DNA from: an uncultured Deinococcales bacterium
GTDB taxonomy: Bacteria; Deinococcota; Deinococci; Deinococcales; JAAFIG01
NCBI GenBank assembly: GCA_964247135.1
Contig: CAXTTL010000131.1
Coordinates: 1 to 13,731, forward strand
DNA length: 13,731 bases
Direction of reading: 5' to 3'
Made by a program: the position numbers and the translations under genes. Position 1 is the stretch's first letter; every line of letters starts with the position of its first letter. This document shows, in pieces, positions 45 to 13,731 of the stretch. The notes beneath the pieces were generated by a model. The model did not search any database, was not told the DNA's origin, and was given only the letters and a program-made list of their open reading frames with translations.

Positions 45-83
45 ATTTTCAGTCTACGGCAATGTGCCACTCGAGTTTGGGGC

Positions 84-120
84 AACAAAAGTTCCCCCAG
101 CCTGGGAGGGCACTGGGGGA
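84..120 (-). terminator. Intrinsic terminator of hsp20
   Basis: Inverted repeat TCCCCCAG (93-100) / CTGGGGGA (113-120), followed on the minus strand by TTTTGTT, about 30 nt after the hsp20 stop. Confidence 0.7.
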
Positions 121-148
121 TTCAGGGGAATCAGAAAAGAAGGCGGGT

Positions 149-589
149 TTAAGCGTTCAGGCTGGGCACGCCAGCAACAGTGATTTTCTTGGCGGTGGAC
201 TCTGGGGCTTTCATGAGCTTGACGGTCAAGACACCATCCTCGAGTTTGGCTTCGATGCCCTCGTGCGAGAGGCGTTCAGGCAGGTTGATCTGGCGTTTGA
301 CTTCGCCCTCGGTGCGTTCGCGCCACAAGTACTTCACGCCTTCGGGCAATGCCTCGGCTTGGGTCTTGGCGCTCAAGGTCAAGACGCTTTTCTCGAGGTT
401 CAGGTCGAGGTTTTCGGCTTTCACGCCTGGCAAGTTAACGCGCACCAACAGGTGATCGGCTGCCTCGAGCACATCGACGCCAGTGTTGGCGGTGTTGCGT
501 GGGGTTTGGGTGTTCTCGAGGTTTGAAAGTACCTCGTCCATGAGTTTCCAGGGGTTGACGGCGCGACTGTTCATTTGACGGTACAACAT
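149..589 (-). CDS. hsp20: Small heat shock protein (Hsp20/alpha-crystallin family)
   Basis: 146 aa with VDVLE..LLVRVNLPGV, ER..GEVKRQINLP and IEAKLEDGVLTVKL motifs plus a C-terminal I-x-V (KITV). SD AAGGAG lies upstream. Confidence 0.95.
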   Translation of the reverse strand: MLYRQMNSRAVNPWKLMDEVLSNLENTQTPRNTANTGVDVLEAADHLLVRVNLPGVKAENLDLNLEKSVLTLSAKTQAEALPEGVKYLWRERTEGEVKRQINLPERLSHEGIEAKLEDGVLTVKLMKAPESTAKKITVAGVPSLNA

Positions 590-660
590 AATTTTCTCCT
601 TTTATTTGGGCTGTTTGGTAACTCGCCCACTTCTTGAGATGAATTAAAGCACACAATAAA

Positions 661-681
661 CTTGAGCGTTGTGCACTCAAT
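661..681. promoter_or_regulatory. HAIR operator (HspR-associated inverted repeat) upstream of hsp20
   Basis: CTTGAGC-GTTGTGC-ACTCAAT against consensus CTTGAGT-N7-ACTCAAG: 12/14 match with the exact 7-bp spacer, about 70 nt upstream of a heat-shock gene. Confidence 0.85.
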
Positions 682-1176
682 TACATTGCAGAATTTAAAG
701 TATTAAATTTGCTGTCTAATCGATTGAAACACCTGGTGATACAAAACTAAAGATAACGCTATTGAACACACAAGCAATCACTCCGAGAAACATAACTTGA
801 AACTGTGATGCCTTGAATTTGTGACCACGCTGTGACCGATCAAGAAGCATAGTGAACCCAGGCTCGAGATGAACTTGAACCCGAAAGGAGGGTAGCTTCG
901 ATTCATTCCAGGGTCTCAGTGTCTCAGGTTGAGGGCTTTAATGACGTTTTCAAGTTCGACTGAGACAGTGCGGAGCAAATGATTGGTTTTTGGAGAAATT
1001 CGCTCAAGAGAACCTTAAATTGTGCTGCGAAGGTGAGCACAGCGATCCAAAGTGTTCGTTACAGCTTGTGGCTTGAATCTCGAGAATCCCAATGTGTGAA
1101 GCCGAAACTTGCTCAATCTCGAGGTTGAAATCCACGAATCCCTTAAAAATTGAAAACTTCACTTCTAGGAGCAATC

Positions 1177-2970
1177 ATGAAGAACCTTGTTTTTTGGCGC
1201 TCAAGTACCATAGCGCTCATTGGAATCGGTTTGGCTTTTCTGGGCTGGAGGGCTTTTGCCGATGAACGAATTGCCTCAACGCCAATTGGACCAAACATGG
1301 TCAAGTACAGGATTGACGAGCCAAATGTCAGGCAGCCATCCACCGATTATCAAAGTCTTGTCTTTAAGCCTGGAGATCGCGTGACCATCAATGCCGGTGG
1401 CTGCGTTCAAACGGGTGGGCATGGCAGAACCTGGAAACGCTATGTCAATCCAGGTGGTTCAAATTCTGATCGTCTTTATCACGGTCTGATCTGGATTCCA
1501 GGTGCGACCGGCAGCCTGGTGCGAATTCAAAGTGTGATTGGACGAACCCTCACGATTCCACTCAATATCGGTACCGCCGACCTCTTTTTGCGGCTCGGAT
1601 ATGAAGATGACGGTTACGGCGACAACAGTTACAAAGACCACGATGACGGCACCGACGATCAGTGCAAAAACGTTGGCGCGGCATGGGTCGAGCTGACCGT
1701 TGAACACAAACCAAATGACACAACCACAGCACCGCCACCGTTGCCATTTGATCTGTCTCTCGCACCAATCGATGATAATTTTCTGCCCATCAATGCCAAA
1801 TGGGGTTGGCAAATCACAAACCCAGGTCAACTTCCCGACCCAGAGGTGCAATGCGCTGGGCAGCCAGACAAGAACCCCTGCACCAATCAGGCAACCTCTC
1901 GAGACTCGTGGTCATTCATTTGTGGACCTCATGCCAATTGGTTTCCAGCCACCTATGAGGGGACCTTGAGCTGGGAATCACACTCGGCTCCGATCAAAGA
2001 TGACGACTATAACCTGCGGCTTAAACGCGATGACAAAGCCGCTTTAACCAAGAACGATGAAACCAAAGGACAGTTGCTCGAGTTTTCATCGGACGAAACG
2101 ATAGATCATTTCAAAACCCCCTGGTGGGATGGTTTCCACAAGGCGGTGGACAAGAGCGATGCTGCCGCCCACGCGCTGGTCGATGGGCGTTTTGCGATTG
2201 TCACAGGGTTGGTCGGTCTGGACTGCGAGCACTCATGCGGTTCAGAATTGCACCCCGTTTACGCGATGGCAATTCGTGTCAAGGACGATCCTTCGGATGA
2301 GGTCTGGGCGATCATGGTGCGCAATTGGGGCAATGAAGGTTTTTGCAGCTCCGATCAGCACCTGCTGCCATTAAAGACGTTCAGTTTTCGTCTTCCCTGG
2401 CGAGCAGGTGCAACGCAAGTGACCTCCGTTCAAGGAACGCAATTTCTCTCGAATGACCCACAAGCCAGTGGTCCCAGCATGAGTGCCGCCGTCAATCAGG
2501 GCGTGTTGGCAAGTTTTACGATGTCTGACCCACACGAGGATGGCACACGCATCAATGGTGAACTCCATTTGCGCTGGTCAGCGCCTGCGGGAATATCAAT
2601 GCGACTTCCGATCAGGGCGATCCCACCTGGTCCCGTCACACTTCCCGTAGAAACCGAAGACGATGCCGAAGCAAAATTTGGCGCACTGGTTACGAACATG
2701 CCCAAACAGGCACGTACCGCCCTGCTTGCCAATATTGCAAAAAAGAACATCGCTCAAGATCAAACAAAGTTTGCAGCCAAAGCACTCGTCAGTGTCTCCA
2801 ACTTGCCAGCCTTAAATGTTTCAAGACTGCGGACAACTCAGATAAGAACCCAGGCTGTTCCCGCAATACGTTGGGTTAAACACCGCCAACAATTGCTCAA
2901 AGCGGTCTGTGCAGCATACGGTGGCAAACTCGAGGGTTTCCCCGCTGGGGCTTGCGACGGCGTGAAGTAG
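1177..2970 (+). CDS. Secreted Cys-rich hypothetical protein (about 597 aa), possible N-terminal LecA/PA-IL-like beta-sandwich
   Basis: Long ORF. Start moved from TTG 1150 to ATG 1177 because TAGGAG precedes it. Signal peptide MKNLVFWRSSTIALIGIGLAFLGWRAFA-DE, 10 Cys, and FKPGDRVTINAGG / LRLGYEDDGYGDN segments reminiscent of PA-IL-like lectin folds (not verified). Confidence 0.8.
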   Translation: MKNLVFWRSSTIALIGIGLAFLGWRAFADERIASTPIGPNMVKYRIDEPNVRQPSTDYQSLVFKPGDRVTINAGGCVQTGGHGRTWKRYVNPGGSNSDRLYHGLIWIPGATGSLVRIQSVIGRTLTIPLNIGTADLFLRLGYEDDGYGDNSYKDHDDGTDDQCKNVGAAWVELTVEHKPNDTTTAPPPLPFDLSLAPIDDNFLPINAKWGWQITNPGQLPDPEVQCAGQPDKNPCTNQATSRDSWSFICGPHANWFPATYEGTLSWESHSAPIKDDDYNLRLKRDDKAALTKNDETKGQLLEFSSDETIDHFKTPWWDGFHKAVDKSDAAAHALVDGRFAIVTGLVGLDCEHSCGSELHPVYAMAIRVKDDPSDEVWAIMVRNWGNEGFCSSDQHLLPLKTFSFRLPWRAGATQVTSVQGTQFLSNDPQASGPSMSAAVNQGVLASFTMSDPHEDGTRINGELHLRWSAPAGISMRLPIRAIPPGPVTLPVETEDDAEAKFGALVTNMPKQARTALLANIAKKNIAQDQTKFAAKALVSVSNLPALNVSRLRTTQIRTQAVPAIRWVKHRQQLLKAVCAAYGGKLEGFPAGACDGVK

Positions 2971-3011
2971 GGGCATTGCAATGTAAAAACGTGATGCAAT
3001 CGGCTGAAGCC

Positions 3012-3044
3012 AAGAAAAAAGCTCGAGCCGTAAAGCTCGAGCTT
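3012..3044 (-). terminator. Intrinsic terminator with a stem made of two CTCGAG copies
   Basis: AAGCTCGAGC-CGTAAA-GCTCGAGCTT (3019-3044) flanked by AAGAAAAAA, a U-tract on the minus strand. It lies between convergent stops at 2970 and 3063. Confidence 0.7.
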
Positions 3045-3062
3045 CCCAAAATATTTTGATCT

Positions 3063-3377
3063 TTAGCTTGGCAAGATGGTGGTGTTCGTCGTACCGCCCG
3101 TGGTGGCACTTGGGTTCTTTTCGATGAAATCATCGATTTTTAAAACCAATTGGCGCATCGCCTCTTGCACCGCCGCCGCAACTTCCCGCGCCATGCGAAT
3201 GTCGTGACCCGTGTTCAACTCGGCAACGTTGACTTGCAATTGGTCGCCGTCCACCGTGATCTCGAGACCAAAACGTGGAATGAGCGCGGTCGCAACGGCT
3301 TGGGCGCTGTTCATGTCGGTCGCCATCGCCATGAGTGTGCCTTCTTTGAGTGATTTCAGTGGGTTTGTGGGTTGCAT
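3063..3377 (-). CDS. Hypothetical protein (about 104 aa)
   Basis: ATG 3377 is preceded by SD AAAGGA, the composition is protein-like (alpha/beta) and a terminator follows. No family recognised. Confidence 0.7.
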   Translation of the reverse strand: MQPTNPLKSLKEGTLMAMATDMNSAQAVATALIPRFGLEITVDGDQLQVNVAELNTGHDIRMAREVAAAVQEAMRQLVLKIDDFIEKNPSATTGGTTNTTILPS

Positions 3378-3513
3378 GAATAATCCTTTCAAAACTGCTT
3401 AAAAGTCTCGAGCGACCATGCCCGTAAGGTGCATCATATGGTCAAGACAGCGAGCTTACCGTGTCAGGGTGAGGATTCACAAGGAGGGAATTCTCGAGAA
3501 GAGATCAAATGGC

Positions 3514-3541
3514 GTCGGGGCGAGACGCGTCTCACCCCGAC
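3514..3541. repeat. GC-rich palindromic hairpin (REP-like or 3' stem of the carboxypeptidase mRNA)
   Basis: GTCGGGGCGAGAC-GC-GTCTCACCCCGAC. The 13-nt arms pair fully on the minus strand with one G:U, about 22 nt after the carboxypeptidase stop. No clear U-tract. Confidence 0.55.
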
Positions 3542-3563
3542 AGAATACGTACTTCTCGAGCTT

Positions 3564-5063
3564 TCAAAGTCCGTACAAATCACTGAATTTGCTTTTCAAA
3601 TACGCCACATACGGTTTTGCGGTCAGTGGTTTCCCCGTGGCTCGAGCGATCAATTCTGGTGGTAGGTAGGTTTTGCCGTACTGGTGAACGTGCTCAATCA
3701 ACCAACCCAGTAAGGGCGCGTATTGCCCCGCCGCGAACATGCCGTTCAGGTCGCCCAGGGTTTCTTTGGCGGTCTCGAGCAATTGCACGCTTAAAATGTT
3801 GCCCAAACTGTAGGTCGGGAAGTACGCGAACAGCGCCTCAGACCAGTGAACGTCTTGCATCACACCATTGGCATCGTTTGGCGGGGTAATGCCGAGGTAT
3901 TCCTGCATTTTGGCATTCCAGGCTTCGGGGAGTTCTGAAACCTTCAACTTCCCTTCAAAGACCGCCAGCTCGAGTTCAAATCGCAGCATAATGTGCAGGT
4001 TATAGGTGATTTCGTCGGCTTCGACACGGATTAAACTGGGCTGCACACGGTTGACGAGCTTGTACATGGTTTCCGCGTCCACGTCGCGCAAACTTTCGGG
4101 AAAATAATTTTGCAATTTGGGAAACCAGTGCTGCCAGAAGGCTCGAGATCGTCCGACCAGATTCTCCCAAAGGCGCGATTGGCTTTCGTGAACGGTGCTC
4201 CAGCAACCTCGAGCCAGGGGGGTGCGGCGCAGGTGCTCGCCCGTGTTTTGCTCGTACATGGCGTGTCCAGCCTCGTGGAACGTGCCAAACAACGCCATTG
4301 GCAGGTAGTTGGGGTCGTAACGCGTGGTCATGCGCACGTCGTCTTTGGAAAAATTGATGGCGAACGGGTGCGCGGTCGGGTCGAGCCGTCCTCGGTTGAG
4401 GTCGTACCCAAAGGCTTGGGACACCTCGAGCGCGAAGGCTTTTTGTTTGTCGATGTCGTAATGACGTTTGAGGTTGCTGTAATCGGCAACCTCGCCTTTG
4501 GCGGCGATGGCTTTGACCAATGGCACGGTCTCGAGACGCAAATCGGCAAAAATCCCGCGAATGTCTTCGGTTTTTAAACCAGGGTCGTAATCCCAAAGGA
4601 GCGCGTCAAACGGATGCGCGGAACTGTCGTAGTAATTGGCGGCTTTGCCTGCCATTTCAAACATCTTCTCGAGGTGCGGCAAAAACGTTTTGAAATCGTT
4701 TTTGCCTCTGGCTTCCTGCCAAGCGTTGCTCGAGCGTGCCCTGGCTTGCGAGAACTCGGCAACGAATTCCGTGGGCAGTTTGCTCTTGCGGTCAAAATCG
4801 CGCCTGACCTGACGCAGAAGCGCACCCTCAAACGATTGTTGCTCGGCAAATTCTGGCTCGAGTTCGGAAAGCAATTCTTTCAACTGCGGCGCCGTACCTT
4901 TTTGATGGATGATGCGTGCCAGGGTTGCACCTTGCAGCGCTCGGGTTTCAATGCCACCGCGCGGCATTTGGGTTTCCTTGTCCCAACTCAAGACGCTCGA
5001 GATGCCTGACAAGTCACTGATTTCGGCGAGCAAATTTTTAAACGTTTCAAGATTTTGGTTCAT
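3564..5063 (-). CDS. Carboxypeptidase, peptidase family M32 (carboxypeptidase Taq-like)
   Basis: 499 aa with M32 motifs HPF, DVRMTTRY, HEAGH (HExxH), HESQSR, IRVEADE, QDVHW and YFPTYSLG. Confidence 0.96.
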   Translation of the reverse strand: MNQNLETFKNLLAEISDLSGISSVLSWDKETQMPRGGIETRALQGATLARIIHQKGTAPQLKELLSELEPEFAEQQSFEGALLRQVRRDFDRKSKLPTEFVAEFSQARARSSNAWQEARGKNDFKTFLPHLEKMFEMAGKAANYYDSSAHPFDALLWDYDPGLKTEDIRGIFADLRLETVPLVKAIAAKGEVADYSNLKRHYDIDKQKAFALEVSQAFGYDLNRGRLDPTAHPFAINFSKDDVRMTTRYDPNYLPMALFGTFHEAGHAMYEQNTGEHLRRTPLARGCWSTVHESQSRLWENLVGRSRAFWQHWFPKLQNYFPESLRDVDAETMYKLVNRVQPSLIRVEADEITYNLHIMLRFELELAVFEGKLKVSELPEAWNAKMQEYLGITPPNDANGVMQDVHWSEALFAYFPTYSLGNILSVQLLETAKETLGDLNGMFAAGQYAPLLGWLIEHVHQYGKTYLPPELIARATGKPLTAKPYVAYLKSKFSDLYGL

Positions 5064-5109
5064 GACCCAGTCTACTCGAGCTTGTGTTTTGATGGCTTAA
5101 ATTGTCTTG

Positions 5110-5324
5110 TTTCCCACAAAATGCTGTATGGTTTCCGAATTTGGTTTGGGATAAGTTATCCACACCCTGATTCCAAATGCTGGGGATTGACAAGCAATTG
5201 CCCCAAGTGCTAAATCAAGATTTAAGTTGTTCTAAACAGTAAAAATCGATTTTTTGTTGCAGACAAAATCACTCGATTTAAGTTATCCACACCCGCATCA
5301 AACCTGTGGATAACTTGTGGATAA
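5110..5324. promoter_or_regulatory. DnaA-box cluster flanking an AT-rich segment (oriC-like or DnaA-titrating locus)
   Basis: Four perfect boxes: TTATCCACA at 5156-5164 and 5283-5291, TGTGGATAA at 5305-5313 and 5316-5324. Two degenerate boxes: TTTCCCACA 5110-5118 and TTGGGATAA 5146-5154. AT-rich core at about 5211-5282. Confidence 0.8.
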
Positions 5325-5327
5325 CTT

Positions 5328-5945
5328 TTAAGCTTGCGTCTCGAGCGCCATTTTGGCACGTTCGACAAATGCCCTGACCATCTGGTGGTCTTTGACTGCC
5401 GCCGAGGCTTCCACGCCGCTCGAAACATCGACGCCCCAAGGCTTGAGTTGCCGCACCGCTGCCGCCACATTCTGAGGATTCAACCCGCCCGCCAGCAACC
5501 AACGCCTGCCCCCGAGCTTTGCCGTCTCGAGTAACTTCCAATCGAAGGCTTGTCCAGAACCAGGATCAAGACCATCAATCAGCAAGGTGTCATGTTTTGG
5601 AAGCTCGAGGTTGGGCTTAAAACTGACCGCCCGAATCACTGGGCGTAACTTTGCCACCTGCGCGGCGAATTCATCCGATTCCTGACCATTGAGTTGCACC
5701 GCGCTCAACCCAACCTGCTCAACCGTCTCGAGAATCGTCTCAAAGCTGGCATTGCGAAACACACCAACCCGAGCCATGAACGGACTTAACGCACGGCTGA
5801 TTTCTTGCGCCCGAGGAAAAGCAAGAAAACGTTTTGTGCCAGGCACGAAATTCAAACCGAGCGCGTCAGCCCCAGCCTGTTCTGCAAAAAGTGCATCTTC
5901 GACTCGAGTGACGCCACAAATTTTGACCCGAATGGAAGGCAGCAT
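5328..5945 (-). CDS. trpF: Phosphoribosylanthranilate isomerase
   Basis: RVKICGVTRVEDA, GADALG, VGVF, GSGQAFDW, LAGGLNPQNV and GVDVSSGVE motifs. Leaderless TAGAAT-N6-ATG. Confidence 0.96.
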   Translation of the reverse strand: MLPSIRVKICGVTRVEDALFAEQAGADALGLNFVPGTKRFLAFPRAQEISRALSPFMARVGVFRNASFETILETVEQVGLSAVQLNGQESDEFAAQVAKLRPVIRAVSFKPNLELPKHDTLLIDGLDPGSGQAFDWKLLETAKLGGRRWLLAGGLNPQNVAAAVRQLKPWGVDVSSGVEASAAVKDHQMVRAFVERAKMALETQA

Positions 5946-6181
5946 GGTTTGATTCTATCTCGAGATGTGATTCAAAGTTGAAAGAACGAATTTCGGGCAA
6001 TAAAAAACGCGCCCGTTTAGGCGCTGATAAATAAAGGATACCAGGGAATGCACTATTCGTCAAGCACATGCACCTGAGTACCGTTTTTCACGTGTTATCG
6101 GTGCGCACGGCGCACCGAAGACCAATATCTCGAGATACAACGCACTTGCTCTGAAAGCCCTTAAACCAATAACCTGAACCC

Positions 6182-7084
6182 ATGACCGCCAAAAAACCAG
6201 CCAATCAAAAACCAAAAAACATCTCCCGAACCAAAACTTCAAGCTCGAGCCTCAAAACCAAAAGTGTCACCGTGGCGTTTCAGGGCGTTCCTGGGGCTTA
6301 CGGCGAGATTGCCGCGAACGCCAGCAGCCCGAACGCCGCGCCCAAGGGTTACACGACCTTTCACGAGGTGCTCGAGGCGGTGCGAATTGGCGAAACCAAT
6401 CTGGGGGTGATTCCAGTCGAAAACTCGTTGGCGGGCACGGTCTATCAGGCAATGGACTTGCTGCCCGAAACGGATTTGCACATCATCGGCGAGATCATTG
6501 TGCGCGTCAACCATCACCTGCTGGCATTGCCAGGGGTCAAACTCGAGCAGGTCAAACGTGTTCACTCGCACCCGCAGGCGCTGGCGCAAAGCGACGGATT
6601 TATTGCCAAGCACCACATGATCCCCATTGCGGCTTTTGATACCGCAGGCGCAGCCAGTGAGCTGATCGAACGCGGCGCAACCGACGAAGCGGTGATTGCC
6701 AGCAAACGCGCCGGCGAACTCTACGGCTTGACCGTGTTGGCGGCAGGCATCGAAGACGAAGACTTCAACTACACCCGCTTTCTGGTGCTGTCAAAACACG
6801 AAATCGAACCCCAAGACGTACCGTACAAAACCAGCCTGGTCTTTGCCGTGCGTCACACGCCAGGATTTCTGCTCGAGACGCTCAACCAATTAAAGGGCTT
6901 GAACCTCACCAAAATCGAGTCCCGTCCGCGCCGCGACCGCGCCTGGAGTTACCTGATTTACATCGACATCGAAGGTGACGCTCGAGAAACCCGCATCGCC
7001 CAAGCGCTGGTCGGTGTGCTGCAAAAAGCCAGTTTTGTGAAGGTGCTCGGCTCGTACCCGATGGCACTCGAGCCTGTGGGTTGA
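6182..7084 (+). CDS. pheA: Prephenate dehydratase (PDT + ACT domain)
   Basis: [36 protein letters not shown] and NLTKIESRP motifs. No chorismate mutase domain. Leaderless TAACCT-N6-ATG. Confidence 0.96.
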
Positions 7085-7155
7085 AAGAAATTGCTCGAGC
7101 AGTCCAAACCGTTTTTTCACGTTTAAAACTGACAAAAGAGGGTAATCTAAGACCA

Positions 7156-8223
7156 ATGCGTCGTTTGATCCTTCCTTCCCTGGCACTCTTCACAGTGCTC
7201 TTTCTCGCCACCAGTTTCGCTTTTTCTTACACCGTCAAAGCGGGCGACACGCTTTACAGCATCGCCAGGAACTTTCGCACCACCGTCAGTGAACTCGAGC
7301 GGCTGAACAACCTCTCGAGCGCCACGGTCAAAATAGGGCAGGTGTTGACCATTCCCACCGTGACCAGCAGCAAACCTGCCCCCAACCTGACCCCAGGAAC
7401 TCGAGAAGCCACGTTTCAAGGGCAAACCAGCGCCAAAGTGATTCACCGTTTAAAAGCCGTCCCTGGCGACCCTGTGACTGTGCGGGTGCTCGGCGCCAAA
7501 GGCGGAGCGCCGATTGTCACCTGGGGTCCGCAACGCCCCGACGGCACGTTTGAAGAGTTGGTCATGACCCCCGACGGCAACGACTGGGTCGGCGTTGGGC
7601 GCGAACTGCTCGGCGAACCACCCAAAACCGTCAATCTGGAAACCAACATCGGCGTCGAAGCCATCACCTCGAGCGTTCAGTTGTTGCGCGACCCGCAAGG
7701 CATTCAAAACGTTTTTGTCAGCCAGCAGGTGCTCTCAACCGCCAACGACACCAACCGCGAACGCGAACTGGCGGTCTTAAACCCCGCCTACAAACAAAGC
7801 GAACTGACCCCTCGAGCCTTTTTTAAGCCGTGGACTGCGCCGATTAACAGCGCCCACATCAGCCCTTTTGGGCAAGCCAGACGTTACGAACGCGGTGGAG
7901 ACGTGAAATACCATTACGGCGAGGATTACGCGGGCAAAATCGGCGACCCGATCCGTGCCGCCAACGATGGCACGGTGGTCATTGCAGGGTTTTACGCGAT
8001 TCGCGGCGGTTTGACTGGCATCGACCACGGCGCGGGCATTGTCAGTCTGTACTTTCACCAATCCAAAATAAACGTGGTTATCGGGCAAAAAGTCACTCGA
8101 GGTGAAATCATCGGTTTGGTAGGCGGGACGGGTTTTGTGACCGGTCCGCACCTGCACTTTGAAATGCGCGTCCGGGGCGAAGCCACCGACCCAAAACAGT
8201 GGATCGGCAAAATTTTCCCTTAA
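7156..8223 (+). CDS. LysM-domain M23 family peptidoglycan endopeptidase
   Basis: Start reassigned to ATG 7156 (MRRLILPSL... signal peptide; TAATCT-N7-ATG). LysM motif YTVKAGDTLYSIA..LNNL. M23 motifs HYGED (HxxxD) and TGPHLHFE. Confidence 0.93.
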   Translation: MRRLILPSLALFTVLFLATSFAFSYTVKAGDTLYSIARNFRTTVSELERLNNLSSATVKIGQVLTIPTVTSSKPAPNLTPGTREATFQGQTSAKVIHRLKAVPGDPVTVRVLGAKGGAPIVTWGPQRPDGTFEELVMTPDGNDWVGVGRELLGEPPKTVNLETNIGVEAITSSVQLLRDPQGIQNVFVSQQVLSTANDTNRERELAVLNPAYKQSELTPRAFFKPWTAPINSAHISPFGQARRYERGGDVKYHYGEDYAGKIGDPIRAANDGTVVIAGFYAIRGGLTGIDHGAGIVSLYFHQSKINVVIGQKVTRGEIIGLVGGTGFVTGPHLHFEMRVRGEATDPKQWIGKIFP

Positions 8224-8275
8224 AACCTCGAGCGCATCAGTTTTTTTTCTCATCTGAAACGATAAAATAACCTTT

Positions 8276-9778
8276 ATGCGAATGGCTGGTATCACCCAAG
8301 CACTCGGTTTTGTATTGATTGGCGGCTTGGCACTGGCGCAAGTTGCCAACCGACCCGACCCCGTGGTCTTGTTCGTCAACGACCTGCCCGTGTTTGAGGG
8401 CGAATACAACCGCGCCCAAATCGAGAACCCAGCCGCCGCGCTGCCCGCCAAAGGATTCTTTAAAACAGACCGCAACAACCTGGCACTGGCAAGCGTGGTC
8501 AAAACCCAAGCCATTCAAAGTGATGCCAGCAACATCGAAGTCAGCAGCAGCGAAGTCGATCACGACATCAACGACCTGATGAAACAAAACAACTGGGATT
8601 TTGGGGAGTTTAAACAAAACATTGAAGCCGCCGGTTACAGCGTCGAAAGTTACCGCCGCCAAATCCGCCAACAACTGCGCAGTGAACGCCGAATCGTCCA
8701 AATCAAAGACCAAGTCAGCCTCAGCGCCGAAGAACTCAATTTATATTACAACCTCTTTAAAAACCGTTACGCCAACAACGGCAAAGTTTTGCCACTCTCG
8801 CAAATCAAAAACCAAGTCGAATTTGATGCCAGAACTGTCAAAACCAACGCCACACTCGAGCACTGGTATCAAAAACTGATGAAAGGCGCCACACTTCGCG
8901 CCCCAGAAAACTCGAGTTTGGAAGTGTATAACCCCATTGTTGCCAAGATGGGAAAAAGCGAAATTGACCTTTGGACGTTAAACCATGCCGTTTACAACGA
9001 TCCCAGGTTTACAGTGCTGCAAAGCGGCAACCAAAACCTGGCAAATGAACTTCAAAAACTAAAAACCAATATCCTCGAGCAACTGATCAACCAATGCGCC
9101 GCCCTCGAGTTTGCCCAAAAAAGCGGTCAACCATTTGTTGGGCAAGGACAAGACTTGCTGGAGGCGGTGACCAATTACAAATTACAACACCTGAGCGTCA
9201 CAGATGCCGAAGTCAAGCAGTACTATCAAACCAACAGCGCCAGCTTTCAAACCCCAGGCTTGGTCAGCTTCAAAACCTTTGCTTTCGTCAACACCAACAC
9301 CGCCAACGCGTTCCGAAACGAACTGATTCGCAGTGGGCGCCCAGTCGAAAATCTTGCCCGCAAATACAGCCAAAGCTCGAGTCAACTGATTCAAGGCACC
9401 ACAAACCAACTGAACCCAAGCGTCAAAAAAGCCATCTTTGATCAGAAGCTCAGCAGGGTCAAAAACGGTTTGATCACACCAACCACCAAAATGAACGGCA
9501 AGAACCTTGTGTTTTTTGTGCAAAACATTCAATACCCAAAAACACCAAGCTTTGATCAAGTCAAAACCCAGGCTTTACAAAAAACACTGGCATACAAACG
9601 TCAAACGACCACCCAGACCTGGCTGCAAAACGCCCGCAAAAGCCTCAAGCTCGAGAATCAACTACAAGCCATTCAAAAAGATTCTGAAGCCCGTGGAAAC
9701 CGCAGTGGAAGCATCGCTGCGACCCAATCAAATCCAATTCCCAAACCAGAACCCAAAACCCCAATCCTTCAACCCTAA
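8276..9778 (+). CDS. SurA/PrsA-like exported foldase with repeated SurA-N-like regions and a degenerate parvulin-like region
   Basis: Signal peptide, two SurA-N-like blocks (PVVLFVND...YRRQIRQQL and PIVAKMGKSEI...ILEQLINQ), two S/T-x-x-E-x-x-x-YY motifs, LARKYS and PSFDQVK. Leaderless TAAAAT-N7-ATG. Confidence 0.75.
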   Translation: MRMAGITQALGFVLIGGLALAQVANRPDPVVLFVNDLPVFEGEYNRAQIENPAAALPAKGFFKTDRNNLALASVVKTQAIQSDASNIEVSSSEVDHDINDLMKQNNWDFGEFKQNIEAAGYSVESYRRQIRQQLRSERRIVQIKDQVSLSAEELNLYYNLFKNRYANNGKVLPLSQIKNQVEFDARTVKTNATLEHWYQKLMKGATLRAPENSSLEVYNPIVAKMGKSEIDLWTLNHAVYNDPRFTVLQSGNQNLANELQKLKTNILEQLINQCAALEFAQKSGQPFVGQGQDLLEAVTNYKLQHLSVTDAEVKQYYQTNSASFQTPGLVSFKTFAFVNTNTANAFRNELIRSGRPVENLARKYSQSSSQLIQGTTNQLNPSVKKAIFDQKLSRVKNGLITPTTKMNGKNLVFFVQNIQYPKTPSFDQVKTQALQKTLAYKRQTTTQTWLQNARKSLKLENQLQAIQKDSEARGNRSGSIAATQSNPIPKPEPKTPILQP

Positions 9779-9811
9779 ACAGCTCAACTCGAGCTGGCAA
9801 AACACGCACGA

Positions 9812-9840
9812 TTGACACGACAACCTCGAGCACATATAAT
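9812..9840 (+). promoter_or_regulatory. Consensus sigma70/SigA promoter of tRNA-Lys
   Basis: TTGACA (9812-9817), 17 bp, TATAAT (9835-9840), 29 nt upstream of the tRNA. Confidence 0.9.
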
Positions 9841-9869
9841 CTCGAGCGCTGCCCAAGAAGGGCATGAAT

Positions 9870-9945
9870 GGCCTGTTAGCTCAGTCGGTAGAGCAGCTGA
9901 CTTTTAATCAGTGGGTCGCTGGTTCGAATCCAGCACGGGCCACCA
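9870..9945 (+). tRNA. tRNA-Lys (anticodon UUU)
   Basis: 76-nt cloverleaf: acceptor GGCCTGT/ACGGGCC, D arm GCTC..GAGC, anticodon arm GCTGA-CTTTTAA-TCAGT, T loop GGTTCGAATCC and encoded CCA. Confidence 0.98.
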
Positions 9946-9981
9946 AACAAAACCTCCGTCACTGACGGGGGGTTTTTGTTT
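9946..9981 (+). terminator. Intrinsic terminator after tRNA-Lys, probably bidirectional
   Basis: AACAAAACCTCCGTC-ACT-GACGGGGGGTTTTTGTTT hairpin with A/T tracts on both sides. It also faces the convergent integrase gene. Confidence 0.85.
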
Positions 9982-10006
9982 CTCGAGAAGCTCGAGAAAT
10001 GCTAGA

Positions 10007-10045
10007 TTTTGCCCTTTTTTGCCCCGTGGATGTAACGCGGATGTA
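10007..10045. repeat. Tandem short direct repeats, candidate integrase arm-type sites
   Basis: TTTTGCCC at 10007-10014 and 10017-10024, and GGATGTA at 10028-10034 and 10039-10045, between the tRNA and the integrase stop. Confidence 0.5.
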
Positions 10046-10055
10046 GTAGAGATTT

Positions 10056-11447
10056 TTAGTTCAGTGGGAGGGCTTGAAACGTCCGTGCTGGAACGGGCGT
10101 TTCAAACAAATCCACCACATGCTGACGGCGTTCAGACTCGAGCACATGACGATATACGTCCAACGTGATCGAGACTTTCGAGTGTCCAAGTACCTTGCTG
10201 ACCACTTCAATCGGCATTCCTCGCCGTAGCATCAGTGTCCCAGCCGTATGCCGCAAGTCGTGGGGTGAAATGATCGGCAGGGCAGCACCAGATCGAATCA
10301 CCAACTCGAGTTTGGCGCGGTGAACCCATGCAATGGCTTTGAGTCGATCTTTAAAAGCCACTTGGTACTCAACCCAGATTTTTTTACCCCTTGCATCTCG
10401 CTCGCCCGAATCACGTTTTCGGGTGATGGGTTCAGTCGTGGACCACTCGAGTAATCCTTTTAAGGAACGGTCAAGGTTATCAGGGTGCGTGTATGTGCCA
10501 AGGGTGGTGGCAAACACTGGGGCATCCTCACGGAAGGCAATGCCATTTGCCTCCAATTCAGCGAGTTGTGATTTTCGTTGCCACTCGAGAACCGCTTTGA
10601 GACTTGCGGGAATCAGCACCTCTCGAGTGCCAGATACGGTTTTGGTCGGACGCATCTCGAGCTTGCCGCCTGGTGTGGTGAGGTTTTGCTTGACTTGCAA
10701 TAAATCATTCTCGAGATCCAAGTCACACCAGCGAAGTCCCATTACCTCGCCACGACGTAAACCAATTGAAACACAGGTAAAGAGCGCCGACCACAAACGG
10801 CAAGAGTCAATGGCATACAGGGTTTCACCCAATTCATGTAATCGAGCCACCTGATCGAAGTCCAAGGCGATCCCAGGATGTTCGGTGCGGCTGACCTTGA
10901 CACGTTTGACCGATTCTGTTGGATTGATGGTAATCAACCCGTCAGCCACCGCCTCACGAAAGACTGCCCGCAAGCGTGTGCGGATGTGCGCCAGTGTGCG
11001 GCTCGAGGTCATCCTGCCAGCACCCATGCCACTTTCTGCGGGTGTGACTGCGAGTTTAGCAAGGGTGTCACGGATGTGAAACGCTTTGACTTCTCGAGGT
11101 TTGAGTGTGCCGATGTATTTGAGTGCCGCAGCCAACTCGCGTTGATACGAGATTCGAGAATTGGTGGAGAGGTTGGTTTGACGCTCGAGCCAGGTTTGGG
11201 CGTATTCGTTTAAGGTGGACTTGTCGGGTGGGGCAAGCAAACCTTTTTGATGTGCAGTGATTGCACCAGCGAGGGCTTTGGCGGCAGCGGTTTTGTCTTT
11301 TTCCGTGCCAGCTCGAGCGATGCGTTTTCCATCTTGGTCATAACCCAATGTGACCTGCCACGACCACTTACCGTTATCGCGCTCCCAGATAGTTCCAAGA
11401 CCGTTTGCCTTATACTTTGCTTTTCGTTCCGCTTTCTTTTTTGCCAT
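10056..11447 (-). CDS. int: Tyrosine recombinase / phage-type integrase
   Basis: Arm-binding-type N-terminus (NGLGTIWER..GKW), core-binding region, and catalytic R (GLRRGE), K (PTKT), HDLRH, LGHS and Y (TLDVYRH). SD GAGGTG. Confidence 0.96.
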   Translation of the reverse strand: MAKKKAERKAKYKANGLGTIWERDNGKWSWQVTLGYDQDGKRIARAGTEKDKTAAAKALAGAITAHQKGLLAPPDKSTLNEYAQTWLERQTNLSTNSRISYQRELAAALKYIGTLKPREVKAFHIRDTLAKLAVTPAESGMGAGRMTSSRTLAHIRTRLRAVFREAVADGLITINPTESVKRVKVSRTEHPGIALDFDQVARLHELGETLYAIDSCRLWSALFTCVSIGLRRGEVMGLRWCDLDLENDLLQVKQNLTTPGGKLEMRPTKTVSGTREVLIPASLKAVLEWQRKSQLAELEANGIAFREDAPVFATTLGTYTHPDNLDRSLKGLLEWSTTEPITRKRDSGERDARGKKIWVEYQVAFKDRLKAIAWVHRAKLELVIRSGAALPIISPHDLRHTAGTLMLRRGMPIEVVSKVLGHSKVSITLDVYRHVLESERRQHVVDLFETPVPARTFQALPLN

Positions 11448-11655
11448 CTTCGATCACCTCGAGTTTGATTCGCACACCAAGAAACTCGAGCAAGTCCTTT
11501 CCAGTTTCGGTCAGCAAGGATTTTCGACCTGTGAAGTACGGGTTGACCGCTTGCCGATTGATGTTCTTGCTCGAGGCAAACGCCGCTTGTGTTTGTTTGC
11601 GGGTTTGCATGGCTTTATTGATTTCGTCGATCAGTTGTTTTTCAATGTCTCTCAC
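11410..11655 (-). CDS. Small XRE/Cro-like HTH DNA-binding protein
   Basis: 81 aa with TQAAFASSKNINRQAVNPYFTGRK HTH-like pattern. Overlaps the integrase start by 38 nt. GTG start lies 6 nt after TGcTAAGTT (extended -10). Confidence 0.75.
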   Translation of the reverse strand: MRDIEKQLIDEINKAMQTRKQTQAAFASSKNINRQAVNPYFTGRKSLLTETGKDLLEFLGVRIKLEVIEDGKKESGTKSKV

Positions 11656-11661
11656 CTCCTG

Positions 11662-11716
11662 AACTTAGCAGACTGTCAATCCTTTGCGTTGACAGTAAAC
11701 CTTCCAGGTTTACAAT
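11662..11716. promoter_or_regulatory. Divergent promoters overlapped by two inverted-repeat operators
   Basis: Plus strand: TTGACA 11689-11694, 16 bp, TACAAT 11711-11716. Minus strand: extended -10 TGcTAAGTT 11670-11662. Inverted repeats ACTGTCAA-N9-TTGACAGT (11672-11696) and GTAAACCT-N3-AGGTTTAC (11695-11713). Confidence 0.7.
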
Positions 11717-11739
11717 GAGAGCACTTGTGGAATGGGAAG

Positions 11740-11955
11740 TCAAGCGCTCGAGTCACCAAATTTCAGTTGCTCGAGTTCCCAACGCTGCAATGCTTCAATT
11801 GGAATGCGAATGACGGGACGACGACTGTTCGGATCACCCAATTTGATGGCAGGCAAGCGCTTCTCTGCGATTTCTTTGTAAATCATGCGACTGTGAACTC
11901 CAAACCGACTGGCTGCCGCGCCGACAGAAAGATATTCTCGAGCTTCACCCATCAC
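11740..11955 (-). CDS. xis: Excisionase-like winged-HTH protein (recombination directionality factor)
   Basis: 71 aa with YLSVGAAASRFGVHSRMIYKEIAEKRLPAIKLG..IRIP, the typical excisionase/HTH_17 pattern. SD AAAGGAG. Close to the integrase. Confidence 0.85.
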   Translation of the reverse strand: MMGEAREYLSVGAAASRFGVHSRMIYKEIAEKRLPAIKLGDPNSRRPVIRIPIEALQRWELEQLKFGDSSA

Positions 11956-12077
11956 TGTTCACGCTCCTTTGCATCGGAAAGTGTTTGACACCGACGCTGA
12001 TGTCAGGGTAGTGACCGACTGGGATGCTCGAGTTATCATGTTTGCATCAGGCGCTTGAGTTATTGAGTGCAACAACT

Positions 12078-12117
12078 AAAAATAAGGATAGACCAGCCAA
12101 TAAAAGCGGCTGGTCTA
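12078..12117 (-). terminator. Intrinsic terminator of the cargo operon
   Basis: Perfect 10-bp stem TAGACCAGCC-N9-GGCTGGTCTA (12089-12117), followed on the minus strand by TCCTTATTTTT, 18 nt after the stop at 12136. Confidence 0.75.
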
Positions 12118-12135
12118 AACCTCAAGCACTGAATT

Positions 12136-12684
12136 TTAATCGCGTTGACCAAAATGAAATTGTCGTTCGGCTGGAGCATCCACCAAAATCTTACCTGTTC
12201 GCGGCGCTGAATTACCTTCAATTGGAGTTACGCATTTCTCTCGTTCGCACACTTTGAACCCGTCCCAGGCAGCCCAGTAAGTCGGACTGGAAAGAAGATT
12301 CCAAACACCCGTAAAGGTTTGACCATCGTCAGCAAGGGTGAACACGAACTCGCCACCTCGAGCATCGGCGGGCGCATCACCGTCTGGTTCGTTGGTCAAC
12401 CAATTGCCATTCCACGGATTTGACCACCAGCGCCCCTCCCAAACGCGACCATCGGCGGACAACAAACCGTACAACACCCAAGCGTGAAATCCTGAACCGT
12501 CTTGAATGCCTTCCATCCGCACGAAAATCTCGTTGTGGGCATTGACAATGTTGCCACCATAACGAATCCGCAATGGGATTCCTTTTGGCGTGTTCAACAT
12601 CTCACCGTTTTGTACATTCTGCCAGGTTGCTGCCCAAATTCCTTCAAACGATCCTTGCAACCCTTCTGTAACTTCGTGTGGCAT
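12136..12684 (-). CDS. Hypothetical Trp/Gly-rich beta protein, paralog of 12724-13263
   Basis: 182 aa, SD AAGGAGG, three motif blocks shared with the upstream ORF. Confidence 0.85.
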   Translation of the reverse strand: MPHEVTEGLQGSFEGIWAATWQNVQNGEMLNTPKGIPLRIRYGGNIVNAHNEIFVRMEGIQDGSGFHAWVLYGLLSADGRVWEGRWWSNPWNGNWLTNEPDGDAPADARGGEFVFTLADDGQTFTGVWNLLSSPTYWAAWDGFKVCEREKCVTPIEGNSAPRTGKILVDAPAERQFHFGQRD

Positions 12685-12723
12685 AGCAGCCTCCTTGATC
12701 CAGCTTGGATCTGAGCTTGGAGT

Positions 12724-13263
12724 TCAGAACAATCCCGATGGCGGTGTCACAATAACAGTTAGCAAATCTCGAGCGGGGAAAGGTGGCGGGTTAAAGCTTT
12801 TGCGATAACGCGGGTTGTGACTGATTTTCCGACCATCCCAAGGAAACCAGTTTGTCGGTTGCGAGGAGATATTAAAACCACCTGTGAATGTTTTTTCATC
12901 TGGGCTGAGTTCAAAGAAGAACTGCCCGCTTTGGTTGAGGAAACTGTCGTTTCGCAATTCACTGATTGGACCGCCACCGTTGTCGAACCCGTTCCACATT
13001 GGTCCCCAAAAACGTCCAATCAGAACGCGCTCCTCGAGGTCTGTGCGAGCATACGAATTCCACTGTGGCTTCAAAAATGGCACGCCATCGGTGTAGCTCA
13101 ATGGCTGATTGCCCTTGCCTGAGTAGTAGATAAAATTTCCGCGCTGCCCAAGGCGCAAAAGGGATTCAATACTCATTGCGGTACGTGCCTCTCGACTGAG
13201 AGTGTTGTCGTTGCGATTCACACCTGCAAACGTTTCTTCCCACGTGCCTTCAAAGTTTCCCAT
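12724..13263 (-). CDS. Hypothetical Trp/Gly-rich beta protein, paralog of 12136-12684
   Basis: 179 aa, SD GGAGG, three motif blocks shared with the downstream ORF. Confidence 0.85.
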   Translation of the reverse strand: MGNFEGTWEETFAGVNRNDNTLSREARTAMSIESLLRLGQRGNFIYYSGKGNQPLSYTDGVPFLKPQWNSYARTDLEERVLIGRFWGPMWNGFDNGGGPISELRNDSFLNQSGQFFFELSPDEKTFTGGFNISSQPTNWFPWDGRKISHNPRYRKSFNPPPFPARDLLTVIVTPPSGLF

Positions 13264-13309
13264 GTAATCCTCCGGTGTTAGAATCTTTGGAATGCTTGAG
13301 CCTGTCTGG

Positions 13310-13729
13310 TTATTTTGCCAGTCCCTCGAGCTGTTTCATCTGTGCCTCGAGTTTCTTCATGGCATTTGCCAATTCGCCATGAATATTGCGAGCGGCTTCC
13401 AAACGGGTTTTGTAATTCGGTGAGCCGTTGCTGTCTGTTTGAAACCAAAATGCTGGCTCTAATTGTGCGAGACCCTTGGTCGGAACAATTTGGACGAGCG
13501 AAGCGATCATTCCATCGTTCAGATATCTGGAAACTGGATCACCTGGATCTCGAATCGGTCCAACACGAATTGGAACGTCCTCCCACAGTCCAAGGCTTTG
13601 CGCGAACTGAACAATTTTGAAATTCCGCATCATTAGAAAGACGATGTAGGCTTCCCAACTTTTGGTTTTGTACTGTTCGCAGTCAGCTTCAGACCTGCCA
13701 GAATTGAGACACGCATAGTATTGCTTCAT
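13310..13729 (-). CDS. Hypothetical protein with C-terminal coiled coil (may be 5'-truncated by the window edge)
   Basis: At least 139 aa, co-oriented with the two paralogs (46-nt gap). Heptad-like end ELANAMKKLEAQMKQLEGL. The ATG is 2 nt from the edge, so the true start is uncertain. Confidence 0.75.
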   Translation of the reverse strand: MKQYYACLNSGRSEADCEQYKTKSWEAYIVFLMMRNFKIVQFAQSLGLWEDVPIRVGPIRDPGDPVSRYLNDGMIASLVQIVPTKGLAQLEPAFWFQTDSNGSPNYKTRLEAARNIHGELANAMKKLEAQMKQLEGLAK

Positions 13730-13731
13730 TT

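Follow-up and report, generated by a model that had tools for sequence, protein, structure and literature searches.

For three decades the highly iterated palindrome HIP1 has resisted explanation, and to our knowledge it was known from a single phylum. HIP1 (GCGATCGC) and the alternate highly iterated palindromes (HIPs) belong to cyanobacteria, and the portions of the primary accounts available describe them as short, GC-rich words that are over-represented 15- to 300-fold in genes and spacers throughout a lineage (Elhai 2015, PMC4390886; Xu, Lawrence and Durand 2018, PMC5861425). The present work concerns a comparable word, the hexamer CTCGAG, in a stretch of 13,731 nucleotides (referred to here as the window; contig C131, CAXTTL010000131.1) from an uncultured Deinococcales bacterium (GCA_964247135.1), and in the genomes of its relatives. 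A preliminary description made from the window had likened CTCGAG to HIP1 and proposed that a DNA-level process, such as methylation-directed repair or conversion, uptake bias or a chromosome-organizing protein, creates or keeps it. CTCGAG is a lineage-wide genomic word of one uncultured Deinococcales family, in which all types of resident DNA carry about one copy every 150 bp under a weak directional force on the exact hexamer.

Several models exist for how such words arise. For HIP1, a ratchet of mismatch repair at G-meC has been proposed, which, as given in the available part of its account, predicts enriched flanks around a methylase core, deviations at outer positions and saturation at about 1 site per kb (PMC4390886). 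Methylases failed to correlate significantly with HIP1 in the available text of one study (PMC13756078), and recent work, likewise available in part, points to a role in transformation and as a "watermark" (bioRxiv 10.1101/2024.09.10.611283; PMC13756078) and includes a comparison with Chi (bioRxiv 10.1101/2024.09.10.611283). The DNA uptake sequences (DUS) of Neisseria and the uptake signal sequences (USS) of Pasteurellaceae are non-palindromic 9- to 12-mers that occur about once per kb and have a known or inferred receptor. In the Dcm/Vsr system of Escherichia coli, a repair bias raises the methylase's own palindromic site (CCWGG), an effect that is small and limited to the T:G-correctable position.

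Abundance and unit of the word

The genome that contains the window (G000; 5.09 Mb in 386 contigs) holds 33,925 copies of CTCGAG, an observed-to-expected ratio (O/E) of 24.7, and the word tops all hexamers in both frequency and over-representation. The roughly 25-fold enrichment first estimated for the window is therefore not limited to it. Among the 297 contigs longer than 5 kb, density has a median of 6.8 sites per kb and a minimum of 2.56, and every one of 4,128 segments of 3 kb contains at least three sites. Contig C289, the poorest above 5 kb and one of the two motif-poorest, was considered as a possible carrier of rRNA; it gave no Rfam match.

The bases that flank the hexamer are almost free (G at position -1 in 39%, C at +1 in 38% and A at -3 in 37%), and 33,844 distinct contexts of 10 bp on either side were found among 33,886 sites (99.8% unique). 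Because contexts are unique and flanks nearly free, the unit is the hexamer itself, as the preliminary description had held, and not a dispersed repeat. The same description had drawn attention to the TaqI site TCGA within the hexamer. This tetramer is not the unit, since the hexamer counts of G000 place TTCGAA and GTCGAC about 10-fold below expectation and ATCGAT at expectation.

The spacing of sites is close to geometric, with a coefficient of variation (CV) of 0.96, the counts in 3-kb segments are over-dispersed (1.65), and gaps shorter than 40 bp fall below expectation in coding DNA. Periodicity, a check that had been recommended at the outset, is confined to the codon: the spectrum of pair distances up to 600 bp has a single short period of 3 bases, and its remaining peaks are the lowest frequencies of the spectrum. 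A start-to-start distance of 6 is never seen, as it would make GAGCTC.

GAGCTC itself has no copy in the 5.09 Mb of G000, and GGGCCC, CGGCCG and GGATCC have 1, 3 and 7 copies. Scarcity is general among the palindromic hexamers of this genome, 36 of the 64 having an O/E below 0.2 (median 0.15, versus 0.81 for non-palindromes), and extends to the tetramers GGCC (O/E 0.016) and CTAG (0.07). Elsewhere in the family, GAGCTC is present in 3 to 25 copies in 15 of 18 genomes and in up to 568 in the remaining three.

Coding and non-coding DNA

For coding DNA, 4,620 open reading frames (ORFs) of at least 100 amino acids were selected by a greedy choice that covers 87.6% of the genome and is a heuristic rather than a gene caller. 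Density is 6.5 sites per kb in this coding set and 7.6 per kb in the remainder. Strict non-coding DNA, in which no frame holds an ORF of 60 amino acids or more (195,860 bp), carries 7.23 sites per kb, at an O/E of 35. The 29,184 sites within ORFs are distributed over frames 0, 1 and 2 as 17,776, 4,658 and 6,750. When synonymous codons are shuffled within genes, so that the protein is kept, about 4,100 sites result, and a 7-fold excess thus persists under the codon-shuffled model that the preliminary description had named as a check; a shuffle of codon order gives about 1,730.

The word has also left its mark on proteins. Leu-Glu is the most over-used dipeptide (23,150 pairs versus 9,671 expected, or 2.4-fold), Glu-Leu is at expectation, and 76.8% of the Leu-Glu pairs are written CTCGAG. 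Orthologues of the M32 carboxypeptidase encoded in the window contain 6 to 12 sites each in 13 family members and 0 to 2 in 15 outgroup members; across the 15 alignment columns that have an in-frame site in the family, Leu-Glu occupies only 38 of the 225 outgroup cells. The Leu-Glu excess and the M32 comparison together indicate that protein sequences have been altered by the force that maintains CTCGAG.

Distribution across the lineage

All 18 other genomes of the family, which represent five genera and include one single-contig genome, carry 4.3 to 6.8 sites per kb. The force thus operates in all 19 family genomes examined, which are metagenome-assembled genomes (MAGs) of 57-94% completeness. 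In the other four families of the order, densities are 0.03 to 2.9 per kb. Separately deposited MAGs supplied 13 orthologous loci, at 67% identity or more to the carboxypeptidase and with a GC content of 0.44-0.58, and all 13 have 3.7 to 8.1 sites per kb. Across 67 loci of Deinococcus, Chloroflexota, Armatimonadota and other groups, the median is 0.09 per kb and no locus exceeds 0.6. Short contigs from three other public DNA runs, each with a small share, reproduced four sites of the window exactly; no RNA run was among those listed. The doubt raised at the outset that the enrichment might be peculiar to the window is accordingly answered by the 18 genomes and 13 loci, and these, together with the recovered sites, speak against an artefact of assembly.

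Outside the family, the sister-family genome G019 displays a weaker but real version of the enrichment, with 1.6 sites per kb, 1.9 per kb in non-coding DNA and a 1.8-fold excess over the synonymous shuffle. Small samples of other relatives lie 1.1- to 2.9-fold over the same shuffle. The opposite is found in the genus Deinococcus (g7), where CTCGAG is about 10-fold depleted, at 128 to 942 copies per genome in six genomes. A search of 51 genomes of this genus yielded no XhoI-family endonuclease, so a different enzyme family must target CTCGAG there. In the present sampling, genus g7 corresponds to the Deinococcus-named loci L310, L315, L319, L320 and L328 and to genomes G020, G024, G028, G032, G036 and G040.

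Conservation of sites and strength of the force

The comparison of G000 with its congener G005 comprised 304 kb at 85.6% identity. Of the sites therein, 1,685 are common to both genomes, 475 are found in G000 only and 303 in G005 only, such that 78-85% of sites are conserved, versus 45% of background hexamers. Protection is evident even where the encoded amino acid is conserved: CTC is kept in 1,110 of 1,212 cases before GAG and in 766 of 1,336 elsewhere, GAG in 1,124 of 1,185 after CTC and in 841 of 1,202 elsewhere, TCG in 405 of 447 within the word and in 633 of 896 elsewhere, and CGA in 211 of 263 within the word and in 266 of 477 elsewhere. Synonymous positions inside the word are therefore kept in 80-95% of cases versus 56-71% elsewhere, or about 3- to 6-fold less change. 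Immediately outside it, at 1-3 bp from a shared site, fourfold-degenerate sites have diverged by 30.1% (n = 1,219), and other distances give 30-34%. A repair-patch gradient, sought as divergence against distance from the site, was flat. All six positions are about equally protected, and protection stops sharply at the edges of the word.

Among single differences between the two genomes, transitions number 106 at positions 1/6, 136 at positions 2/5 and 87 at positions 3/4. No excess at either cytosine was seen in this pair, and with it no signature of decay of the 5-methylcytosine type. One-mismatch neighbours of CTCGAG are not depleted as a class, and the three transition neighbours have O/E values of 1.2-1.7, as is expected if the decay of 34,000 sites feeds them. 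The selective loss of such variants, for which the preliminary description had proposed a test, was thus not found, and the positions behave alike.

The ratio of loss flux to gain flux is about 27 (ln 3.3), and the non-coding excess of 35 corresponds to ln 3.56, both by our own arithmetic. An equilibrium of independent sites with a scaled advantage of about 3-3.5 fits these data, in that it reproduces the 25- to 35-fold excess as well as the ratio of the word to its one-mismatch neighbours. A scaled force of this size is comparable to strong codon bias or biased gene conversion. It acts on DNA, and not on protein or codon usage. The proposal of a DNA-level process is in this respect borne out: the excess survives the shuffles, non-coding DNA matches or exceeds coding DNA in density, and the word is protected while the flanking fourfold sites are not.

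Terminators, tRNA genes, CRISPR and mobile DNA

The effects of the force reach beyond the replacement of amino acids: it has been strong enough to shape terminators, a number of tRNA genes and a repeat of the clustered regularly interspaced short palindromic repeats (CRISPR) type. The first 20 bp after stop codons contain 13.5 sites per kb, versus about 6.5 elsewhere, and intergenic CTCGAG pairs at distances of 10-30 bp are 2- to 4-fold commoner than coding pairs, with examples that form a hairpin followed by a T-run. Since two copies of a palindrome can pair with each other, CTCGAG builds terminator stems.

The 66 tRNA genes of G000 contain ten sites, located in eight genes (e.g. at C157:3282-3938 and C14:11589-11740), where composition predicts about 1.4 by our own arithmetic. 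Several of these copies lie in the 3' acceptor or T-arm region. The tRNA cluster on C157, which accounts for three of the eight genes and four of the ten copies, looks atypical and may be mobile.

A CRISPR array (G000:C221:6950-8177 together with C9:1-170) has at least 17 repeats of 37 bp, each with one CTCGAG. The word also occurs in 3 of the 16 unique spacers (GC content 0.45), or about 6 per kb where 0.13 copies are expected, albeit in a small sample. Further spacers were sought, but the full repeat had no match in metagenome contigs, a 20-mer of it had one match at a contig end, and no further arrays were found in the loci examined.

Accessory DNA carries the word as well. Most restriction-modification (R-M) genes have 3.8-7.3 sites per kb, and the AT-rich methylase gene on C189 (GC content 0.40) has none. 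The D12-class methylase gene at G000:C320:2155-2985 is 84% identical between G000 and G011, which belong to different genera, and 76% identical between G000 and G005 of the same genus, a pattern that is a sign of gene flow within the family. Several other R-M genes have the same patchy pattern.

A phage of the family was sought among viral contigs with three closely placed CTCGAG. None was found among the matches listed, which were mostly GC-rich contigs, and nine of the richest, several of them devoid of GAGCTC, had no tblastx or blastn match to G000. Viral contigs L245, L148, L157, L204 and L210 have a GC content of 0.58-0.69, 4-6 CTCGAG per kb and no GAGCTC, a combination they share with the family, but have no sequence link to G000. 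The integrase encoded in the window likewise had no relative among the viral contigs.

Methylases, restriction and DNA-exchange proteins

The search for methylases covered five Pfam families. The XhoI family (PF04555) was found in none of the 19 family genomes, and the same holds for Vsr. Within the order, the XhoI family is present in 6 of 201 genomes, five of them in one sister family, where it adjoins a beta-class methylase. No orthologue of that methylase was detected in the CTCGAG-rich family, and the relatives that carry XhoI-family R-M have a CTCGAG excess of only 1.7-fold over the codon shuffle.

G000 encodes two C5 methylases, several beta-class N6/N4 methylases, a D12-class methylase and a permuted methylase-like protein, in addition to a type I HsdM, two MmeI-like enzymes and an SNF2-methylase fusion. 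For six of its methylases, orthologues of at least 50% identity were present in about 3, 3, 0, 2-3, 6 and 3 of the 18 other family genomes, a patchiness that is usual for mobile R-M genes. There was no PF01555 hit in the single-contig genome G011 and no PF00145 hit in G008. When the hits to the five Pfam families in five genomes were clustered and compared with G000 by tblastn, no methylase orthologue group common to these six good genomes was recovered within the five families, the MAGs of the family being 57-94% complete. The permuted methylase-like protein (G000:C4:28577-29977; 466 amino acids) has beta-class motifs in permuted order, its S-adenosylmethionine-binding part preceding the DPPY-type part; it is found in few family genomes and has internal stops in two.

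In the genomes and Pfam families searched, the force on CTCGAG accordingly does not go together with XhoI-type restriction, Vsr or a family-wide orthologue of a DNA methyltransferase. A classical R-M origin and a short-patch mechanism of the Dcm/Vsr type are not supported, and no drive confined to a single deaminable position could lift the word 25-fold above all 18 of its neighbours. Methylation-directed repair, the first mechanism to be suggested, finds no backing in these results or in the similar behaviour of the six positions, and a methyltransferase co-distributed with the enrichment, which was to be looked for in related genomes, is not shared across the family in the MAGs and Pfam families searched.

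Proteins of DNA exchange are similarly unrevealing. The ComEC domain of the competence machinery, tried as a gene that might track the motif, was detected in 18 of 19 genomes of the family but also in all 22 genomes from the other families and is thus uninformative. Proteins of about 900-1,150 amino acids with PDDEXK_1 occur in every family of the order but were detected in only 10 of 18 family genomes, and the RecB-type nuclease domain (PF12705), used as a proxy for a Chi reader, is found in all families and does not track the motif.

Organization of the window

The window contains exactly 84 copies of CTCGAG (70-13351; the first at 70, the last at 13346-13351) at a mean spacing of about 160 bp, whereas 200 dinucleotide-preserving shuffles yield a mean of 2.58 and a maximum of 7. 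The copies lie in genes, in all three frames, in spacers and in a mobile island; 25 of the 84 are outside the listed ORFs, within 2,881 non-coding bases. The original count of about 84 was therefore accurate, as was the remark that genes and spacers carry the word alike.

A core block at 3015-9980, syntenic with five congeners, has 48 sites (6.9 per kb) and includes genes for the M32 carboxypeptidase, TrpF, PheA, a LysM-M23 peptidase and a SurA-like peptidyl-prolyl isomerase, along with tRNA-Lys. In alignments of this block with the five congeners, 62-83% of CTCGAG are conserved, versus 32-46% of background hexamers. The carboxypeptidase gene (3564-5063, reverse strand) has 11 sites divided 6/3/2 among the frames, and CTCGAG encodes six of its seven Leu-Glu pairs. 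The pheA gene for prephenate dehydratase (6182-7084, forward strand) has six sites, divided 4/1/1; those at 6371, 6981 and 6244 represent frames 0, 1 and 2, respectively. The early readings of both genes, that is, six of seven Leu-Glu pairs written CTC-GAG and the use of three frames, are hence confirmed.

Upstream of the core, a strain-specific insert at 711-3014 is missing from the five congeners and is motif-poor, with six sites. It contains an ORF of 606 amino acids (1150-2970) that has no match in Pfam, PHROGs or NCBIfam, and it looks more recently acquired, given a density of only 2.6 sites per kb. Downstream, the gene for tRNA-Lys(UUU) (9870-9945, forward strand), with CTCGAG at 9825 and 9841 in its promoter-like upstream region, is the attachment point of a genomic island. 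This island lies 3' of the tRNA gene (9981-13731), is not found in the five congeners and has 25 sites at the host density of 6.7 per kb. Eleven of these are in the gene of its phage-type tyrosine integrase (10056-11447, reverse strand), which was the sole match when the unknown ORFs of the window were compared with Pfam, PHROGs and NCBIfam. A close pair of sites at 9982-9996, with a start-to-start distance of 9 bp, is located directly past the tRNA terminator and resembles the short-spaced intergenic pairs that form terminator stems elsewhere.

Two short dispersed repeats are also present in the window, at 3411-3447 (about 37 bp) and 5989-6079 (about 90 bp), with many copies of 75-97% identity across the five congeners. 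They are probably elements similar to repetitive extragenic palindromic (REP) sequences or miniature inverted-repeat transposable elements (MITEs). The repeat at 3411-3447 adjoins a CTCGAG.

Possible origins of the word

It is tentatively proposed that CTCGAG is a self word, recognized directly by a lineage-specific protein when DNA is exchanged or defended against, in the manner of DUS/USS or Chi, a reading that may hold although it falls short of probable. Such a protein would bind the bare hexamer, with no canonical cognate methylase, and would act in DNA exchange or in the judgement of self and foreign DNA, be it through uptake, recombination or degradation. DNA bearing the word would be slightly more often taken up, spared or recombined; the word could then accumulate through drive, selection or both, and mobile DNA in these hosts would carry it too. 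The proposal is drawn from the placement at terminators, the presence of the word on circulating accessory and mobile DNA, its scarcity on imported DNA and the hint from the spacers that invaders carry it. The current work on HIP1, in the parts available, points the same way (bioRxiv 10.1101/2024.09.10.611283; PMC13756078).

A number of observations weigh against a protein of this kind. No reader protein was identified and no uptake receptor was found, candidate receptors not having been sought by homology, and neither ComEC nor the RecB-type nuclease domain tracks the motif, both being found in every family of the order. DNA uptake in Thermus is not known to show a sequence preference. A word of 6 bp discriminates poorly per copy and, at one per 150 bp, nearly every fragment already has many copies, so that an extra site should gain little if uptake alone were at work. 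The spacing (CV 0.96) and over-dispersion (1.65) give no indication that even coverage is selected for. Should phage DNA carry the word, its accumulation could not be driven by uptake alone, although the spacer sample numbers only 16. Lastly, the absence of a methylase was established from incomplete MAGs and five Pfam families, and an unrecognized or non-orthologous enzyme may exist.

In the HIP1-type explanation, an orphan methylase modifies CTCGAG, and methyl-directed mismatch repair or very-short-patch repair makes or keeps the sites, as in Elhai's ratchet or in a process like Dcm/Vsr. The over-abundance and the conservation of sites are indeed HIP1-like, and the family genomes are rich in methylases and incomplete as MAGs, yet no methylase group spans the family, G011 and G008 lack PF01555 and PF00145, respectively, and Vsr was found in 0 of 19 genomes. 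The mild preference for G at -1 (39%) and C at +1 (38%) would create a GC step at the edge, as in the available part of Elhai's model, but the core hexamer itself is enriched 25-fold, whereas the HIP1 methylase core is there described as not enriched outside the octamer, and the density is about 7-fold higher than the predicted saturation of about 1 per kb (PMC4390886). Differences are concentrated neither at the outer positions nor at the cytosines, positions 3/4 having the fewest transitions (87); none of the ratchet's three predictions is thus seen for CTCGAG. CTCGAG is listed among the methylated motifs of hot-spring communities in the available text of a recent survey, which reports its methylation in thermophilic communities that include Deinococcota (bioRxiv 10.64898/2026.06.24.734251). 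Relatives with an XhoI-family R-M pair have only the 1.7-fold excess over the codon shuffle noted above. Taken together, an origin of this type is unlikely.

A neutral molecular drive is likewise thought unlikely, although several properties of the force agree with it. Here a hexamer-specific mismatch nuclease, or biased repair or conversion, would turn near-cognate heteroduplexes into CTCGAG without any function for the cell. The force is weak (about 3-3.5), acts per site, is blind to context, is equal over six positions and has a sharp edge; spacing is nearly geometric with a 3-base period only; all resident DNA is affected, including islands, R-M genes, tRNA genes and the CRISPR repeat; and G019 provides a weaker version in a sister lineage (1.6 per kb, 1.8-fold over the shuffle). 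No candidate enzyme is at hand, however, as Vsr and XhoI-family folds were not detected, and one-mismatch neighbours are not below the level expected from composition (transition O/E 1.2-1.7), though decay from 34,000 sites would give that. Sequence alone cannot tell such a drive from weak selection.

Less credible is a nucleoid-associated or chromosome-organizing protein that prefers CTCGAG, with weak selection at each site to keep the density. One site per 150 bp is within the range of spacing of nucleoid proteins, and coding and non-coding DNA both carry the word. A nucleoid role has been argued for HIP1 in the available portion of one study (Xu et al. 2018, PMC5861425). Against these points, there is neither regular spacing nor helical phasing, counts in 3-kb segments are over-dispersed, palindromes of 6 bp are more usual as targets of restriction- or methylase-like proteins, and no candidate protein was found, all of which makes this explanation improbable.

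Finally, a by-product of codon or dipeptide usage, a dispersed repeat or an error of assembly or binning is refuted, for although frame 0 (Leu-Glu) is the commonest (17,776 of 29,184) and high-GC relatives and phages with a preference for CTC and GAG codons reach 2-7 sites per kb, the excess over protein-preserving shuffles is 7-fold, non-coding DNA is richer than coding DNA, 99.8% of contexts are unique, GAGCTC, which is made of the same two codons, has 0 copies, and the enrichment is repeated in 18 further genomes and 13 independent loci.

Direct reading of the hexamer by a lineage-specific protein is therefore retained as a working proposal. The broader idea, that a methylation-independent self word has rewritten genes, terminators, tRNA genes, CRISPR repeats and the mobilome, and so represents a second, independent and mechanistically different HIP1-like solution, is conceivable but doubtful.

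Comparison with known systems

In the literature searched, neither an excess of CTCGAG in bacteria nor an iterated palindrome in Deinococcota was found to have been described. The sole over-representation of CTCGAG that was found, reported for the honey-bee genome in the part of that report available, is unrelated (PMC3903499).

The word in Deinococcota is an independent case that is denser and shorter, has sharp boundaries and apparently lacks a conserved cognate methylase, and it separates the phenomenon of a word driven to saturation from the cyanobacterial particulars of DmtA and DmtC. The 25-fold enrichment in one family and the roughly 10-fold depletion in Deinococcus, within one order, offer a natural contrast for phylogenetic profiling. 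In addition, motif density flags imported DNA and provides a sensitive signal for binning and host assignment of MAGs, plasmids and phages.

Among known systems, XhoI and PaeR7I share the recognition word itself, and an XhoI-family enzyme with its beta-class methylase is present in the sister family. Nevertheless, the 19 family genomes contain none (0 of 19), and restriction normally depletes its site, a depletion matched by most other palindromes in G000 and by CTCGAG in Deinococcus. Dcm/Vsr offers the precedent of a repair bias that raises a methylase's palindromic site, but Vsr is found in 0 of 19 genomes, C5 methylases are not universal in the family and all six positions of CTCGAG are driven; CTCGAG does not behave as a word of that type. 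Chi, read by RecBCD or AddAB, is similar in that it is short, over-represented, a mark of self DNA and a modulator of how DNA is degraded and recombined. It is asymmetric, oriented with replication and far rarer, whereas CTCGAG is palindromic, and the RecB-type nuclease proteins of the order do not track the motif.

The likeness to DUS and USS is closer. All are genome-wide words of a lineage that are common to related species, often paired in terminator hairpins (for CTCGAG, at 13.5 sites per kb after stops), placed in the least costly coding frames and explicable through a drive of uptake plus recombination. In contrast to those words, CTCGAG is a 6-bp palindrome present at 6.7 sites per kb, and no receptor was found.

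The resemblance to HIP1, as originally noted, is real. Enrichment is genome-wide, in coding and non-coding DNA (O/E 24.7; 35 in strict non-coding DNA), and falls within the 15- to 300-fold range of HIPs, and conservation exceeds background (78-85% versus 45%). As in the available accounts of HIP1, a CRISPR repeat contains the word, imported DNA is marked by a scarcity of it and its function is unsettled (PMC4390886; PMC5861425). Relative to HIP1 as described in those parts, CTCGAG is a hexamer rather than an octamer, is about 7-fold denser (6.7 per kb), belongs to another phylum and is enriched as a whole word rather than as a methylase core with flanks. No palindrome-specific methyltransferase conserved in the lineage was found in the 18 family genomes (MAGs 57-94% complete, five Pfam families), and deviations are not concentrated at outer positions (106, 136 and 87). 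Apparently, CTCGAG is a HIP-like or DUS-like word with a different anatomy and a different dependence on methylation.

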